Assembly: GCA_024672275.1 (NCBI GenBank)
Contig: GCA_024672275.1_4536.1
Length of the DNA stretch: 64,000 nt
From: a phage
Direction: 5' to 3' (one strand)
Shown here: positions 3,880-45,977 of the stretch, in pieces
Layout: the number at the start of each line of letters is the position of its first letter
Numbering within the stretch: the first letter of the stretch is position 1
Position numbers and translations under genes: made by a program
Notes under the pieces: model-generated
The model's input: only the letters and a program-made list of their open reading frames with translations
Database searches by the model: none
Told to the model about the DNA's origin: nothing

Positions 3880-3994
3880 AATATCGCTTGCCAGCGGTAT
3901 CTTTGAAGACCTTGCCTGGTTCCTTCTAAGATGGAGGGGTGCGACTCCTTAACGCACAATTATAATAAAGCATTTCAAATTAACAGTATTTATT

Positions 3995-4018
3995 AGCCTC
4001 CTTATTGGAGGCTTTTTG
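3995..4018 (+). terminator. rho-independent terminator closing the tRNA cluster
   Basis: agcctcc-ttatt-ggaggct hairpin followed by TTTTT. Confidence 0.7.
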
Positions 4019-4036
4019 CTATCTATTGAATAAAAC

Positions 4037-4065
4037 TTGACTTATTATTTTTTATATGTTAAGAT
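4037..4065 (+). promoter_or_regulatory. sigma70-like promoter for the late-block operon
   Basis: ttgact 4037-4042, 17-nt AT-rich spacer, taagat; followed by AGGAGG and ATG 4087. Confidence 0.45.
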
Positions 4066-4086
4066 AAAGTTTAGGAGGATTTTATT

Positions 4087-4383
4087 ATGCCTAAACTAAA
4101 ACGTGGTCGTGGAAGACCAACAGCCGAAATGCAACAGATCTACGCAATGGATGCGGCGCAAGCAAGTGTAAAAGAATTATTTGCAGAGCATTATTTAGAA
4201 GCTATGCGATATATTGTTGAACTTGTTAATGATAAGGATGCAGCAAAACCTCTCCGCTTCCAAGCAGCTAAAGCTATTAAAGAGCAAGTAGAAGAATGGT
4301 TAGAAGAACATTATGAAGCTATGGAAGAAGAAACCCCTGCCGTGCAGAATACAGATGACGTTCCTAAAAAGATCGTAATCTAA
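4087..4383 (+). CDS. hypothetical basic/acidic helical protein (98 aa); possibly a small DNA-binding protein (terminase small subunit not excluded)
   Basis: strong RBS AGGAGG; N-terminal KLKRGRGRP basic patch; first gene upstream of spanin/terminase block. Confidence 0.5.
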   Translation: MPKLKRGRGRPTAEMQQIYAMDAAQASVKELFAEHYLEAMRYIVELVNDKDAAKPLRFQAAKAIKEQVEEWLEEHYEAMEEETPAVQNTDDVPKKIVI

Positions 4384-28712: not shown

Positions 28713-30017
28713 ATGTCAACTACAATTACTAATTTACCAGAAACATCAAAAGTTAATGGTTCTGATTACCTGGTTTTAGACCAATCTGATAAGACTGTTA
28801 AAAGCACAGTTTCCAACTTTCTTACTGACACTGGGGTGGTTTTAGCCACCCAGTTGAAAGATACAGATGGAGCAGATTTAATACAATCCTCAAATGGTAA
28901 TACTGTTCAGGAAGAGTTGAATAACAATCTTCTTAATAATCGTGAACAGTGGCGTCGTAGTCTTGCTGAGGCAGGGTTAACCCTTGTCAACGGTAGCTTT
29001 GAAGAAGGGGCTACAGTAAACAATAAGACGGATGCTGTTTGGCATATTGCTGGTGGGCAGTGCTATACGTGGGATGGTGCTTTCCCTAAAGCTGTTCCCT
29101 CTGACTCAACCACTACATCAACCGGTGGTGTTGGAACAGGTGCATGGGTTAGTGTTGGTGATGCATCTTTGCGTACTGATTTATCTTCATCTGATGGTGC
29201 TGGGCTTATTGGTGTTAGCTCTGGAGGGACAGTACAAGGCTCCCTCTCCGACATTAAGAACTTAATTAAGCACGCGCAGCCGCTTTCTGACAGACGCATC
29301 GTAGCTATTGCTCACCGTGGATATTCAGAGACGTATTTAGAGCAAACACTGATGGCTTACAGTCAATGTAATGCTGATGTATTAGAAGTCGATATGCAAA
29401 CTACATCAGATGGGTATGCTGTGTGCTTCCATGACAATGACTTGTCCCCTGCTACCGTAGGAGGTTCTGGGGCGGTAAAAGATAACACATACTCCACCGT
29501 TTCCGCATTACGTTTTACAAGAGCCGTCGGTACAAGATACGCAGACATGGCGGGCATACCGACATTGGGGTCAGTCTGCCGGATTGCTATGCGACGCGGT
29601 AAAATGCTTCACGCAGAAATAAAAGGCTACAGAACGTTAGAAGATTGCGCTCTTTACTCGAGCATAGTCAACCAATACGGCTTGAGTCCATACACCACAT
29701 TTTCATGCTTCGACTTCGCTCCGTTGGCATACACCCACAACATAAATCCGCGTATTACCTACGCACTAGAGTTAAACTCTTACGATAGTAGCATGGACGC
29801 TAACATAGCAGAGCTTGCGTCCTGGGGCGGGTCTGTGTTGTCTATAAACAAAAACATATTGAGCACTATAGGCAATAAGAAGCTTCGCGAGTGGGAGGCT
29901 ATGGGGCTTACTTTGGCCGCATGGACGATATACACGGCAGAACAAATGCAGACCGTTGCCAATTACGGCATACGTCTTGTATATCTGGATAAAGATTTTT
30001 ACAACATTATAGGTTAA
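28713..30017 (+). CDS. tail fibre-like protein with C-terminal glycerophosphodiester phosphodiesterase (GDPD) domain
   Basis: 434 aa; N-terminal fibre-like region then HRGYSETYLEQT ... LEVDMQTTSDGYAVCFHDNDL (HRG / E-x-D...T-x-DG...HD GDPD signature). Confidence 0.55.
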   Translation: MSTTITNLPETSKVNGSDYLVLDQSDKTVKSTVSNFLTDTGVVLATQLKDTDGADLIQSSNGNTVQEELNNNLLNNREQWRRSLAEAGLTLVNGSFEEGATVNNKTDAVWHIAGGQCYTWDGAFPKAVPSDSTTTSTGGVGTGAWVSVGDASLRTDLSSSDGAGLIGVSSGGTVQGSLSDIKNLIKHAQPLSDRRIVAIAHRGYSETYLEQTLMAYSQCNADVLEVDMQTTSDGYAVCFHDNDLSPATVGGSGAVKDNTYSTVSALRFTRAVGTRYADMAGIPTLGSVCRIAMRRGKMLHAEIKGYRTLEDCALYSSIVNQYGLSPYTTFSCFDFAPLAYTHNINPRITYALELNSYDSSMDANIAELASWGGSVLSINKNILSTIGNKKLREWEAMGLTLAAWTIYTAEQMQTVANYGIRLVYLDKDFYNIIG

Positions 30018-30022
30018 CTGAT

Positions 30023-30790
30023 ATGAAGCAAATTATTAACTCCCGCAATTTCTCACACTGGGACTTTTTAAACACTGGTTCTGGTACAACGATGGTTGTG
30101 CCGGATGGTAGGTTACGTATGCAAAACCCTGATGACTCAAGCAGAGCAATGGTGATTCGCGATATCATGCTAATGCCTGGGGATACTGTGACCATCTATG
30201 GTATTGGAAGGACAACGTCGTTATCATCAGGCGCATTTATAATGGGGGTGGAGTACCCTGTTGGCAAACGCCTCGCTCAAGCTAACTTTATCCATAACGA
30301 AGACAGCTTACTTCTTAAATGTTCATGGAAATGTCCGGTAGACGCCGAACCGTGCACTGTTAGGCTTGCTTGCGGTCTTCCGAAATCAACAACAGCCATT
30401 GCGTATATGACAGACTTATGGATCGAGATTGACTCTGAAAACTTGAGTAGTCGACGCATCTTAATGGACGGTGTTCTTGAGATAAACGCTGGTGTGGCAT
30501 CTATATCAACGGCATATGACCGTTGTAACGTAGGATCAATTAACGCGTCCAGCGTCAACGTTGACATTAGCCCAGCCGTCTTCACCGCAGGAGACCGTAG
30601 GCCTTTGGCGTTTGTCCAGCCGATTTTTAACACTAAAGAAACGTACTCATCCGGAGTTTTAATTCCTGTCGCTGACTTCACTAAGGCTGGGGTTCTAAAC
30701 ATTAGACTTCAAAACCCAGCTACAGGGAATCTCGTAGGTGTTACTGGAGCCAGTATTTACAAAACAATAGCTTTCACTGTATATATTTGA
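30023..30790 (+). CDS. hypothetical tail-associated protein
   Basis: 255 aa ORF following the GDPD fibre gene. Confidence 0.4.
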   Translation: MKQIINSRNFSHWDFLNTGSGTTMVVPDGRLRMQNPDDSSRAMVIRDIMLMPGDTVTIYGIGRTTSLSSGAFIMGVEYPVGKRLAQANFIHNEDSLLLKCSWKCPVDAEPCTVRLACGLPKSTTAIAYMTDLWIEIDSENLSSRRILMDGVLEINAGVASISTAYDRCNVGSINASSVNVDISPAVFTAGDRRPLAFVQPIFNTKETYSSGVLIPVADFTKAGVLNIRLQNPATGNLVGVTGASIYKTIAFTVYI

Positions 30791-30802
30791 TTGCAATACA
30801 CT

Positions 30803-30822
30803 AAAACCCCGCCGAAGCTGGG
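30803..30822 (-). terminator. terminator hairpin (minus-strand orientation; may act bidirectionally)
   Basis: minus-strand cccagc-ttcg-gcgggg hairpin followed by TTTT; same gcttcggcgggg core as terminator at 19569. Confidence 0.5.
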
Positions 30823-30834
30823 TTAGTTCTATCA

Positions 30835-30864
30835 TCAGAACGGAATATCGTCGTCGAAATCCAT
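30835..30864 (-). CDS. 9-codon micro-ORF encoding MDFDDDIPF (the SSB C-terminal tip peptide); near-duplicate of the ssb 3' end
   Basis: ATG 30864..30862, stop TGA 30837..30835; AAGGAGG at 30884..30878; 30835-30872 matches 44042-44079 at 34 of 38 nt. Confidence 0.25.
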   Translation of the reverse strand: MDFDDDIPF

Positions 30865-31029
30865 CGGAGGCTCATTACCTCCTTGTGGGCTTTATTGTTT
30901 GGGTGGCAGTTGCTGTTTATCAACCAAACCAACGCTGCGGTAGGTAGGGGGTTTTTGTTGTACCCCCTAACAAATTATTAGGTAGACTGTTTTAGTCAAT
31001 TACGACTTAACTAACCTGAGAAAGTCCCT

Positions 31030-31320
31030 ATGGGAAATGAACCAGATAACGTAACTCTAGCCAGACTCGAGGAGAGACTGAGAAACATTTTCGAAAACCA
31101 AACCCGTGAATCAAGGGAAAGGGAGAAAATGGAAGAGTCTATTAAAAAACTAAGTGAGTCTATGGGCGACCTTAGTAACCGACTTAAACGGGTAGAGGAG
31201 AGCATCACTAAGTCTGAGCCTACTATTGAAGAGTTCATCACCATTAAACATAAAGTTGCTGGTGCTGGAATTTTTGGCAAGTTGGCATGGGCTGTAGCAG
31301 GTGCAAATGGGCTTCATTAA
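31030..31320 (+). CDS. hypothetical coiled-coil protein with hydrophobic C-terminus
   Basis: 96 aa; charged coiled-coil then GAGIFGKLAWAVAGANGLH. Confidence 0.35.
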   Translation: MGNEPDNVTLARLEERLRNIFENQTRESREREKMEESIKKLSESMGDLSNRLKRVEESITKSEPTIEEFITIKHKVAGAGIFGKLAWAVAGANGLH

Positions 31321-31497
31321 GGTTCACACAAGCTATGTCCTGCAAGCGCATGTCATCGCCATGTGATAAAATGATGAAAACATATCGTAGCAGGGTTAAT
31401 CTTGTCTTTAGTTACTATCGTACTAACTCAAAGTGTTGTCACTACCACTGCAAGCCCCTCCAAAGAGGGGCTTACTTAGAAAAACAAAGAGGTTGTT

Positions 31498-31806
31498 ATG
31501 AACGAAATGTTCTCCCAAGGTGGTAAAGGTTCAACCGGAATCTTAACCAATAAACAAGCAGTAGCCCGTCACTTTGGAGTTAAACAATCTGAGGTTGTTT
31601 ACTTCTCAATTGGTGTGGATTTGGGTGGGTATAAGGTTATCTATGACAAGGAGACGCAAAGGGCGTATTCCCTACCTGCTGATATTGCCCCAGGTACTAC
31701 TGCCATTAGTCTTAGTGCTGCTGTACTTGTGCATTCAGCGGGTTCTGTAGACCTTGGGGAATTAGCTATATCTTGTGATTTAAAAAGTAATGAGAACGCA
31801 CTATGA
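31498..31806 (+). CDS. hypothetical protein (102 aa)
   Basis: ATG with AGAGG RBS; coupled to downstream membrane protein. Confidence 0.45.
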   Translation: MNEMFSQGGKGSTGILTNKQAVARHFGVKQSEVVYFSIGVDLGGYKVIYDKETQRAYSLPADIAPGTTAISLSAAVLVHSAGSVDLGELAISCDLKSNENAL

Positions 31807-44041: not shown

Positions 44042-44929
44042 TCAGAACGGAATATCATCGTCGAAGTCCATTGGAGGTTCTTCTTGATTACTTGGAGTTG
44101 GTTCTGGTTGTGGTTCAGGCTTCTTAACTTCTTTCTTCTCTTCTTTCTTAGGTTGTTCTGCTGAACCACGAATGGCAGCAGCAACTTTATCAGACAGGGC
44201 CAGAACTTTACGAGCAGAATCAATCAGATCTTCTACAGATACAGTCTTAATGGTATGGTCTTTACAAGCATTGAGGATAGCGTGACCAACAGATGCCCCA
44301 AGATCATAATCATTAATATCAACGCCACGAGATTCAGCAATTTCCGATTTCAGTGTGACAGTTGCAGATTGAACAACCCCAGCGATATCGAAAGCATCGC
44401 CTTTAACACCATTACGAATCAGTTCCAGTGCACCATTTACTGCGTGACCAGTTTCCAGACCTACAGTATCACGTTTTTTATAGGACTGCTTAGGAGCAGC
44501 ATCGTTGGAACCTTTATTGCCAGAAGATTTGTTAGACTTCTGAACACCATCGGTAGACAATACTGTAATACGAGATTTTTTAGTATTGTAGTAAGTTTTA
44601 CCGCCTTTATTATCAACGCGATCAATATCAATACTTACTTCTACACCTTTTTCAATAGTGATCCAATTATCACCTTCTTTGACTTGCAGGTTTTCATAAC
44701 CTTCTTTCAGTTCAATATCACCAAGAGAAATCCAAACACCTTTCTCATCTGGTTTAGCACCTTTCTCTTTCAGAACAAGAGAAGCTCGGTGAGTTGAAAC
44801 AATCGTTTTTCCTTCCCAATGAAAAGTTTTAGGTTCGGCGAATTTATCCAGTTTAACGTAGTCTACGATACCAGTTGCATAAGTTACGGTTTTGCCTTTA
44901 CGATCAGTTTCAGTATTAATTACGGACAT
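44042..44929 (-). CDS. putative single-stranded DNA-binding protein with host-type SSB C-terminal tail
   Basis: 295 aa; last 11 residues PPMDFDDDIPF identical to the E. coli SSB C-terminus; Pro/Glu/Lys-rich linker before the tip. Confidence 0.55.
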   Translation of the reverse strand: MSVINTETDRKGKTVTYATGIVDYVKLDKFAEPKTFHWEGKTIVSTHRASLVLKEKGAKPDEKGVWISLGDIELKEGYENLQVKEGDNWITIEKGVEVSIDIDRVDNKGGKTYYNTKKSRITVLSTDGVQKSNKSSGNKGSNDAAPKQSYKKRDTVGLETGHAVNGALELIRNGVKGDAFDIAGVVQSATVTLKSEIAESRGVDINDYDLGASVGHAILNACKDHTIKTVSVEDLIDSARKVLALSDKVAAAIRGSAEQPKKEEKKEVKKPEPQPEPTPSNQEEPPMDFDDDIPF

Positions 44930-45383: not shown

Positions 45384-45977
45384 TTACCAAGGAATATCAT
45401 CTTCTTCCAATCTGGTATCTACTTGAGGTGGACGTGGAACCTTAACCTCTTTCACAAAACGAAGATATGGGAAACGTGTAGCAATTTTAATAACATGTTT
45501 GGCATCTTCTCTAACATCTTTGTGCAAGAAGCAGATCCCTGTTTCCAAGGTTGTTTCAAAATCTTTAGAATAATAACAGTCCTTCCCATCAAATGCAGCC
45601 TGGCAGATGGACAGATCGAACTCATTTAGAAAGGTTGTCATTACGCTTGGTTCCATAATCATAAGGTTGCAAAGCTGACCATCACGTTCAAACTCAAAAA
45701 CGTGTTTAAGACCAGTAACACCTTCATAATTGTCAGAAGCCTCTTTGTTTCCTAGTTTACGAATATTGGTTCCCATTAAAGCAGATGCAATTAATCCTTG
45801 TATTTGTTCTTCAGTCCGATGTGCAGGAAGGGATGTATAGAAATCCAGATCACGTCCAGCAATATCAAGAATACGCCAATCACGAACAGCACCGCCAGCC
45901 AAGACAGAATTAGGATCAGCGATCTTTAATACGGTAAGAATTTCTTTGGCAATATTGATTTGTTTTGATTTAGTCAT
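45384..45977 (-). CDS. hypothetical protein ending in SSB-tip-like EEDDIPW
   Basis: 197 aa; C-terminal ...DTRLEEDDIPW resembles the acidic SSB tip. Confidence 0.45.
   Translation of the reverse strand: MTKSKQINIAKEILTVLKIADPNSVLAGGAVRDWRILDIAGRDLDFYTSLPAHRTEEQIQGLIASALMGTNIRKLGNKEASDNYEGVTGLKHVFEFERDGQLCNLMIMEPSVMTTFLNEFDLSICQAAFDGKDCYYSKDFETTLETGICFLHKDVREDAKHVIKIATRFPYLRFVKEVKVPRPPQVDTRLEEDDIPW

Follow-up and report, generated by a model that had tools for sequence, protein, structure and literature searches.

In mosaic lambdoid phages, gene remnants and boundary (linker) sequences are found at the junctions of modules, as documented in the literature of Hendrix, Juhala and Clark. For the receptor-binding proteins (RBPs) of Gamaleya-, Kaguna-, Kutter-, Justusliebig-, Kayfuna- and Nouzillyviruses, conserved motifs common to all of these groups were described before and after the receptor-binding domain and were proposed as recombination hotspots (PMC10408124; Virol J 2023). 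The downstream motif of that study comprises 20 nt, is terminator-like and is located 0-19 nt after the RBP stop codon. The element characterized here is located behind a phage tailspike gene and its partner gene and resembles a minute gene for the C-terminal tip of SSB. Very probably it is a piece of a foreign ssb gene without function, a recombination scar left by the horizontal exchange of a tailspike cassette.

The stretch of phage DNA under study (64,000 nt from a large E. coli myovirus, in the following called the window) is 98-99% identical to Phapecoctavirus genomes, e.g., those of anhysbys and ZCKP1, over positions 1-25000. Phages of the anhysbys and ZCKP1 type are rV5/phAPEC8-type myoviruses of about 150 kb. 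Between 25000 and 45000 the same genus covers 85-89% of the window at 97-98% identity, and the gaps in this coverage coincide with the tailspike slot, which holds the element. The tailspike gene (28713..30017, plus strand, 434 aa) matches PHROG tail spike families and combines a Tail_spike_N anchor (PF18668, amino acids 92-150) with a GDPD (PF03009) receptor-binding/enzymatic part, GDPD being the abbreviation for glycerophosphodiester phosphodiesterase. It is followed on the same strand by a gene for a 255-aa protein (30023..30790, stop codon at 30788-30790), which is always paired with the GDPD tailspike. No match to the 255-aa protein was obtained in Pfam, in PHROG or, by tblastn, in the phage collection; a metagenome protein search returned homologs with 52-91% identity, encoded directly after the GDPD tailspike gene in siphoviruses and prophages. 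Further downstream, a G7C-like (Gamaleyavirus) segment on the plus strand (30918..31320) comprises a conserved spacer and a homolog of N4 gp63 (31030-31320, phrog_5211), the counterpart of which is annotated as similar to N4 gp63 in PhAPEC5/G7C. The region 30800-31306 shares 86% identity with phi G17 and 82% with PhAPEC5, and its homolog in the N4-like Gamaleyaviruses is located between a gp63.1-type tailspike gene and the N4 gp63 homolog. Essential baseplate and tail genes follow downstream on the plus strand.

The element is encoded antisense inside this long plus-strand late operon. The initial annotation had described it as a minus-strand mini-gene for the tip of the host SSB, equipped with a ribosome-binding sequence, a start codon, a stop codon and a terminator hairpin of its own. 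As sequence, all of these parts are present. The minus strand of 30803-30884 reads AAGGAGGTAATGAGCCTCCG-ATG GAT TTC GAC GAC GAT ATT CCG TTC TGA and then forms a hairpin; the SD-like AAGGAGG is located at 30878..30884 and the nine-codon ORF ATG-MDFDDDIPF-TGA at 30835..30864, with the ATG at 30864-30862 and the TGA at 30837-30835. NEPPMDFDDDIPF, in which the ATG of the ORF encodes an internal Met, is identical to the C-terminal 13 residues of E. coli SSB (sequence per PMC5872125). Upstream of this ATG the reading of an SSB tail continues in frame as KQQLPPKQ*SPQGGNEPPMDFDDDIPF*, and the complete fragment (30835..30917, minus strand) corresponds to ~27 codons from the end of a siphovirus-type ssb. 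It is interrupted by an in-frame TAA nonsense codon (30892..30894), nine codons upstream of the tip ATG, which cuts the remnant off from the upstream codons and which is CAA in all intact alleles. The fragment retains the acidic C-terminal tip ending in DDDIPF (MDFDDDIPF*) and lacks the OB fold of a functional SSB (PF00436), the N-terminal ~140 codons of ssb and any start codon except the internal Met; its open frame extends over nine codons, its homology to ssb over about 27.

The presumed expression signals are of poor quality. Between AGGAGG and the ATG there is a spacing of 13 nt, and GGAGGU pairs with GCCUCC, which directly precedes the ATG, to form a 6-bp stem both in the minimum-free-energy and in the centroid fold, so that the tip ORF has no accessible ribosome-binding site at a functional spacing. 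In a scan limited to sigma-70-like sites, one 9/12 match (30923-30894) was found on the minus strand against 1.9 expected, and nothing above chance emerged from the promoter and terminator scan of the region. Of the terminator claimed initially, the hairpin as such stood: it is located at 30807..30822 and is a remnant of a bidirectional tailspike/ssb terminator, aligning with the perfect CCCCGC-NNNN-GCGGGG hairpin of the donors and the G7C-like phages. As a terminator it would be weak: the stem contains one mismatch (CCCCGC/GCTGGG), the folding energy is a modest -9 to -11 kcal/mol (z about -1), the T-tract is poor, and no call was made at this position by the terminator scan. The hairpin of PhAPEC5 is a compensatory stem variant. 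The Rfam scan of 30500-31300 yielded only a sub-threshold PreQ1 match (31129-31159, E=0.44), which is regarded as chance.

For a comparison with complete genes, the remnant was aligned with six intact siphoviral ssb alleles, in which it corresponds to ...PPKQQSPQGGNEPPMDFDD(D/S)IPF*. The stretch CAAGGAGG was found in six of the six, and all of them carry it in the arrangement CAAGGAGG...ATGGAC...TGA followed by the hairpin. AAGGAGG, in the window (C)AA-GGA-GG(T), originates from the Gln-Gly-Gly codons CAA-GGA-GGY of the SSB tail, which are present in every intact allele, and the TGA and the hairpin of the element are the ssb stop codon and the shared terminator. As SD, ATG, stop codon and hairpin all pre-exist in the 3' end of every donor-type ssb examined, the look of a mini-gene is inherited from ssb, and the notion of signals belonging to the element itself is not supported. 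On the DNA level the fragment and its surroundings (30782-30917) share 81-86% identity with annotated ssb 3' ends, among them those of ASO78B, DS8, ZCEC08, IME207, LPST10, seszw and Vi II-E1, and 372 phage records match the SSB-tip codons, in line with the conservation of the tip.

Relative to the six intact alleles, four changes in 86 nt are private to the window: the nonsense change CAA>TAA at 30894, the missense change CAG>CTG (Q>L) at 30908 and two synonymous changes at 30901 and 30859, the last of which is the sole one within the nine-codon ORF. No selection signal on the ORF was obtained from these four changes, a number that provides no power for the detection of constraint. The private changes are compatible with the neutral drift of a young pseudogene fragment, and with its nonsense codon, its missense change and the mismatch in the terminator stem the fragment is decaying.

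A colinear counterpart of the whole region was found in L010, a metagenomic siphovirus contig. In blastn, window positions 29070-30916 aligned in one piece with positions 4048-5894 of L010 (87.1% over 1849 nt), and the match crosses the tailspike, the 255-aa gene and the shared terminator before it ends 82 nt into the 3' end of ssb. In L010 and two further contigs (L014 and L015), a tailspike gene with Tail_spike_N and GDPD parts is followed by the 255-aa gene, a convergent intact SSB gene (PF00436), an AAA_24 recombinase, a DUF3799 exonuclease and a helicase; the donor-type SSB of L010 was recognized as PF00436 with E=2.4e-38. In a group of siphoviruses of ~45-48 kb, the gene for the tailspike or tail fibre converges on ssb and has a bidirectional terminator in common with it. 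This convergent arrangement is seen in DS8, ASO78B, ZCEC08, IME207, LPST10, seszw, Vi II-E1, Jersey-like phages and L010. Terminators are annotated at the site downstream of the tailspike in ASO78B and PhAPEC5. Prophages and another siphovirus type carry the same two-gene cassette followed by other genes, without ssb.

The limits of the acquired block (29070..30916, from the distal part of the tailspike gene through the 255-aa gene and the terminator to the 3' end of ssb) were determined from both sides. Homology to the Phapecoctavirus backbone stops at 29156 and resumes at 31340 for EF1-1, stops at 29173 and resumes at 31307 for ukendt, and stops at 28883 and resumes at 31181 for Ec-G1, and the homology to L010 begins at 29070. 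The left boundary is formed by a stretch of ~100 nt (29070..29173), a conserved motif located where the Tail_spike_N coding region ends: 29070-29183 is 71-74% identical to the otherwise unrelated spikes of ASO78B, PhAPEC5 and ZCEC08. At the right boundary the affinity switches at 30916/30917, with siphovirus-like DNA to the left and Gamaleyavirus-like DNA from 30918 to 31306. The element thus lies at the switch between blocks with different closest relatives, its ssb-end homology continues colinearly into the neighboring DNA of the donor, and its reading frame is truncated and disrupted. The second possibility raised by the initial annotation, a recombination scar marking a module junction, was borne out by these results, as the element forms the right end of a 1.85-kb siphovirus-colinear block and the switch to G7C-like DNA occurs at 30917. 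No clear divergence step was detected between the window and L010, L024 or L025, the divergence from them being patchy, and the window's own right-hand crossover is not visible.

A census of the same position in other phages comprised 11 loci bearing the remnant and additionally L025, a close relative without it. The tip ORF is intact in four of the 11 remnants, namely in the window, in the Gamaleyaviruses PBM-3 and SP5M, and in L024, a Phapecoctavirus-type contig with the same cassette, which reads MDFDDSIPF and contains no nonsense codon. The remaining seven are degraded: phi G17 reads MGFSDDIPL*, PhAPEC5 MGPDNSIPF* and G7C MGFED*, ST4 has no ATG, and in ukendt tip and terminator are replaced right after ATGGA. 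A P22-like prophage in E. coli NZ_OW968111.1 carries a missense change and a 1-nt insertion (frameshift), and phiHAO78-1 reads VDFADSIPF, with a GTG start and a D>A exchange. The differences among the four intact tips are synonymous, a pattern which selection would also predict and which recent copying from different intact ssb alleles would explain equally well; the census gave no indication of purifying selection on the tip ORF at this position in other phages.

L025 carries the same cassette as the window (92.7% identity over 1708 nt), without the ssb remnant. Past the first hairpin its sequence continues directly with a second, similar one and then with backbone position 31307; by recombination across these two hairpins L025 has deleted the ssb remnant together with the spacer, and one hybrid hairpin was left. 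EF1-1 and Ec-G1 contain other cassettes and no remnant. When IMG/VR was scanned for the pattern of the G7C-type spacer, nothing emerged beyond G7C and PhAPEC5 themselves. In the relatives, the remnant at this position is thus decaying or not conserved (seven of 11 degraded, L025 without it), a finding which, by the terms of the initial annotation itself, speaks against a mini-gene.

The same distal flank, ...CTGGTTAG..AAATATTGA|ACAGCAATCAGG..., is clear in seven of the 11 remnants and joins ssb at ...ACAGCAATCAGG, where the distance to the ssb stop codon is about 111 nt. The window fits this shared flank given an internal deletion, the remnant of G7C is too truncated to reach the distal junction, and PBM-3 has a different distal flank. 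The common flank indicates one original truncation, which would later have spread among podo-, myo- and temperate phages; with the differing flank of PBM-3, such a single-origin model does not fit every remnant.

In three different cassettes the match ends within the ssb tail: that of the window 82 nt into ssb in the comparison with L010, PBM-3 70 nt into ssb in the comparison with ZCEC08 (99.0% over 2638 nt), and PhAPEC5 71 nt into ssb in the comparison with ASO78B (73.6% over 1883 nt). Between PBM-3 and ZCEC08 there are 0 differences over a stretch of ~970 nt that reaches as far as the ssb stop codon, and six (~10%) in the ~60 nt beyond it. A recent crossover accordingly maps to the terminator/ssb tip in this pair, and from the break in identity at the ssb stop codon it follows that terminator and ssb tail served as a homology arm there. 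Crossovers mapping to the motif flanking the RBP were thus seen in PBM-3 versus ZCEC08 and in the two-hairpin deletion of L025; in the window itself no clean breakpoint is visible.

The window also contains a resident gene on the minus strand (44042..44929, 295 aa, ending in PPMDFDDDIPF), which is annotated as SSB in EF1-1 and Ec-G1. The match of 30835-30872 to 44042-44079 at 34 of 38 nt, reported in the initial annotation, was reproduced; it is the sole match of at least 28/38 on both strands of the window, and 200 shuffles reached a maximum of 25/38. An origin of the fragment by duplication of, or gene conversion from, this resident gene, for which the match would speak, is nevertheless highly improbable. 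With the resident gene the similarity breaks off after ~40 nt, whereas that to siphoviral ssb runs over at least 82 nt and then on into 1.7 kb of flanking DNA, and this far longer extension implies that the fragment is not derived from the resident gene. SPQGGNEPP, KQQ.PPKQ and the terminator match siphoviral ssb, while the resident gene reads PSNQEEPP. Nor is the 34/38 match specific: the tip of the host gene, E. coli ssb1, is equally similar to the fragment (88.6-90.9% over 44 nt), so that the match reflects the general conservation of SSB-tip codons and not an internal duplication. The DDDIPF codons of the window are closer to the resident gene, DS8 and ZCEC08 than to its closest cassette relatives L010 and L024 (both encoding DDSIPF), and gene conversion over a very short tract, restricted to the DDD codons, would be conceivable; yet all tip variants, bar one private synonymous change, are found in some intact siphoviral allele. 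A host-derived origin was rejected as well, E. coli ssb1 matching only the 44 nt of the tip.

For the element to act as a gene, an antisense transcript would have to give rise, through AAGGAGG and ATG, to free MDFDDDIPF, which would compete with the SSB of host or phage for the SSB-Ct pockets on ExoI, RecQ, PriA, chi, DnaG and similar partners. Such a mini-gene is hardly credible, even though ORF, SD-like sequence and stop codon are intact in the window, the tip ORFs of PBM-3, SP5M and L024 are intact, too, and the peptide equals the SSB-Ct of E. coli, a hub motif with more than 14 partners (PMC5872125). SSB-tip-like tails also occur elsewhere in the phage family, where a nucleotidyltransferase has a conserved DDIPW end. 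Against this stand the inheritance of every signal from ssb, the badly spaced SD sequestered in its stem, the single 9/12 promoter-like site on the minus strand, which lies within chance (1.9 expected) and is no convincing antisense promoter, and the antisense position within the late operon. Moreover, the tip is degraded or missing in most copies, including the close relative L025, and the one private change in the ORF gives no statistical sign of constraint; the decoy or competitor peptide proposed initially is for these reasons not supported. A fresh and intact scar, as in the window, PBM-3, SP5M and L024, might, with very low probability, give MDFDDDIPF by low-level antisense transcription and transiently perturb the host SSB interactome. 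If this were true, the peptide would be a by-product of tailspike swapping, occasionally open to selection. A different reason for the persistence of the segment, rather unlikely and compatible with a scar, would be a non-coding function, in which the hairpin serves as terminator or insulator of the cassette or as a processing/stability element and the ssb codons are simply carried along with it. Across genera no part is conserved better than the hairpin, in which PhAPEC5 shows a compensatory stem change, the conserved downstream motif was predicted to be a terminator (PMC10408124), and terminators are annotated here in ASO78B and PhAPEC5. The hairpin of the window itself, with its stem mismatch and poor T-tract, received no terminator call, however; strong termination would be harmful here, since essential genes of baseplate and tail lie further along this strand, and L025 was left with one hybrid hairpin after the deletion of remnant and spacer.

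A fragment of a foreign ssb gene, left by horizontal exchange of the tailspike cassette, is thus the explanation which we prefer with high confidence, and a working gene is very unlikely. The colinear arrangement, the limits of the block, the distal junction common to the remnants, their decay and the one crossover mapped in PBM-3 are directly demonstrated; the direction of transfer, the co-infection setting and an arm raising the exchange rate are parts which we infer. The donor would have been a siphovirus with one or more tailspike genes convergent on ssb and a bidirectional terminator between them. From such a donor this Phapecoctavirus would have gained a single block (29070-30916) made up of the distal GDPD tailspike, its 255-aa partner, the terminator and ~82 nt from the end of ssb, and the fragment would then have decayed in its new site. 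Probably tailspike swapping also makes use of the scar as a homology arm: terminator and ssb tail would form the right arm, and the final part of the Tail_spike_N coding region the left one. During co-infection, homologous recombination at both arms would recurrently swap receptor-binding cassettes, the partners being siphoviruses with an intact ssb beside the tailspike on the one side and podo-, myo- and temperate phages with the remnant on the other. The strong conservation of the SSB-tip codons would keep the right arm recognizable, and the weakened hairpin of the window would suit a plus-strand operon whose downstream baseplate genes need to be expressed.

As a gene candidate the element is a false alarm, real as sequence and ordinary as biology, and its recognition as such avoids the annotation of a spurious "SSB-tip peptide" gene. 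As a marker it points to a siphovirus-type source of the GDPD tailspike cassette of this Phapecoctavirus, and it shows that the same ssb tail of ~110 nt with one ancestral breakpoint is located behind the tailspikes of no fewer than four further lineages (N4-like podoviruses, other Phapecoctaviruses, a P22-like prophage and phiHAO78-1). The extreme conservation of the SSB-tip codons may make the ssb tail a reliable homology arm, and the scar could be used to trace the exchange of receptor-binding proteins or act as a natural landing pad for engineering. The novelty is modest: a documented mosaic-junction remnant, and likely the explanation of a published conserved motif, which thereby gains an origin and a larger extent.

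Compared with bacterial-type SSB (PF00436), the fragment is alike in that it encodes NEPPMDFDDDIPF and is DNA-homologous to phage ssb 3' ends, and it differs by the missing OB fold, the missing start codon of its own and the in-frame nonsense codon. In sequence, its hypothetical product would equal the SSB-Ct competitor peptides used in vitro (PMC5872125); those synthetic peptides are laboratory reagents, whereas the peptide of the window is only hypothetical, and a naturally encoded free SSB-Ct peptide was not found in a literature search.

Like the remnants of lambdoid phages, the ssb scar is a truncated piece of a neighboring gene which travels with a module, marks a junction and offers homology for later exchange. 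Unlike these, it spans sipho-, podo- and myoviruses as well as a temperate podovirus, and it derives from one of the most conserved bacterial coding motifs, the SSB C-terminal tip. A further correspondence is with the motifs flanking the RBPs (PMC10408124). The stretch 29070..29173 corresponds in position to motifs one/two of that study, and the downstream motif matches the window in position as well, with the stop codon at 30788-30790, an A-tract from 30803 and the hairpin from 30807, which aligns with the hairpin downstream of G7C gp63.1. In the published description, the downstream motif is a non-coding stretch of 20 nt, and ssb is mentioned 0 times. Here, the conserved downstream region extends over ~100-125 nt and consists of the bidirectional ssb/tailspike terminator plus the final 64-111 nt of ssb, with a distal breakpoint in common, and beyond the genera listed there it is also present in Phapecoctavirus, in a P22-like prophage and in phiHAO78-1.

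Directly 3' of the Tail_spike_N+GDPD tailspike gene lies a plus-strand gene (window 30023-30790) for a protein of 255 aa, for which no matches were found in Pfam, PHROG or the phage databases. In siphoviruses, prophage-like regions and the myovirus of the window, this gene invariably occupies the same position directly behind a Tail_spike_N+GDPD tailspike gene, the prophage-like regions being those of E. coli, Citrobacter and Providencia. The protein probably partners with, or assists, a spike which cleaves teichoic acid or glycerophosphate.

The ssb-tail scar, a remnant of the 3' end of an ssb gene, is also present, unannotated, in E. coli NZ_OW968111.1, in a P22-like prophage with arc, ant, tailspike and intS genes, where it lies between the tailspike and integrase genes (1481404-1481624, i.e., 3955-4175 of locus L026). 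Its tip is frameshifted and its distal junction is shared with other remnants. The Phapecoctavirus-type contig L025 carries the same cassette and lacks both the remnant and a spacer of ~260 nt (L025 1690-1740 compared with 897-1200 of L024, another contig of this type). This loss apparently arose when two hairpins that resemble each other (AAAACCCCGC...) recombined. Spacers of the ukendt type contain two copies of the terminator-like motif.

A homolog of N4 gp63 (phrog_5211) is located within the Phapecoctavirus tail locus (plus strand, window 31030-31320, with 30918-31306) and shares 86% nucleotide identity with Gamaleyavirus phi G17. The gp63-like allele of Ec-G1 differs from that of the window and resembles the allele of Gamaleyavirus PBM-3 (88%). 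Phapecoctavirus and Gamaleyavirus therefore swap this small gene along with tailspike cassettes. Within the gp63-like coding sequence a sub-threshold match to the PreQ1 riboswitch (31129-31159, plus strand; 18.5 bits against a gathering score of 39, E=0.44) was obtained, which is regarded as chance.

A stand-alone plus-strand ORF of 102 aa (31498-31806), kept in every Phapecoctavirus compared, shows homology to the N-terminal domain of tailspikes of the G7C type. It aligns to positions 327-419 of phrog_7992 and shows 72.7% nucleotide identity to the 5' end of PhAPEC5_67; its product may serve as an adaptor or represent an N-terminal spike module that was split off.

The resident protein of 295 aa called SSB in relatives (44042-44929, minus strand; phrog_4477, "unknown function") gave no Pfam SSB/OB-fold match, and SSB PHROGs match it only across the last ~45 residues. 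It terminates in the exact enterobacterial tip PPMDFDDDIPF. Two genes away from this SSB-annotated gene, a nucleotidyltransferase-like protein of 197 aa (45384-45977, minus strand; phrog_10174) is encoded which ends in LEEDDIPW. Preceded by a variable linker, the DDIPW end is kept in all homologs down to 59% identity, with DDSFPW in one, and is missing from two distant homologs. DDIPW is an SSB-tip-like tail, apparently under selection, on a non-SSB enzyme, and the tail of this putative nucleotidyltransferase may dock on the binding pockets for SSB-Ct, the protein-interaction end of SSB.
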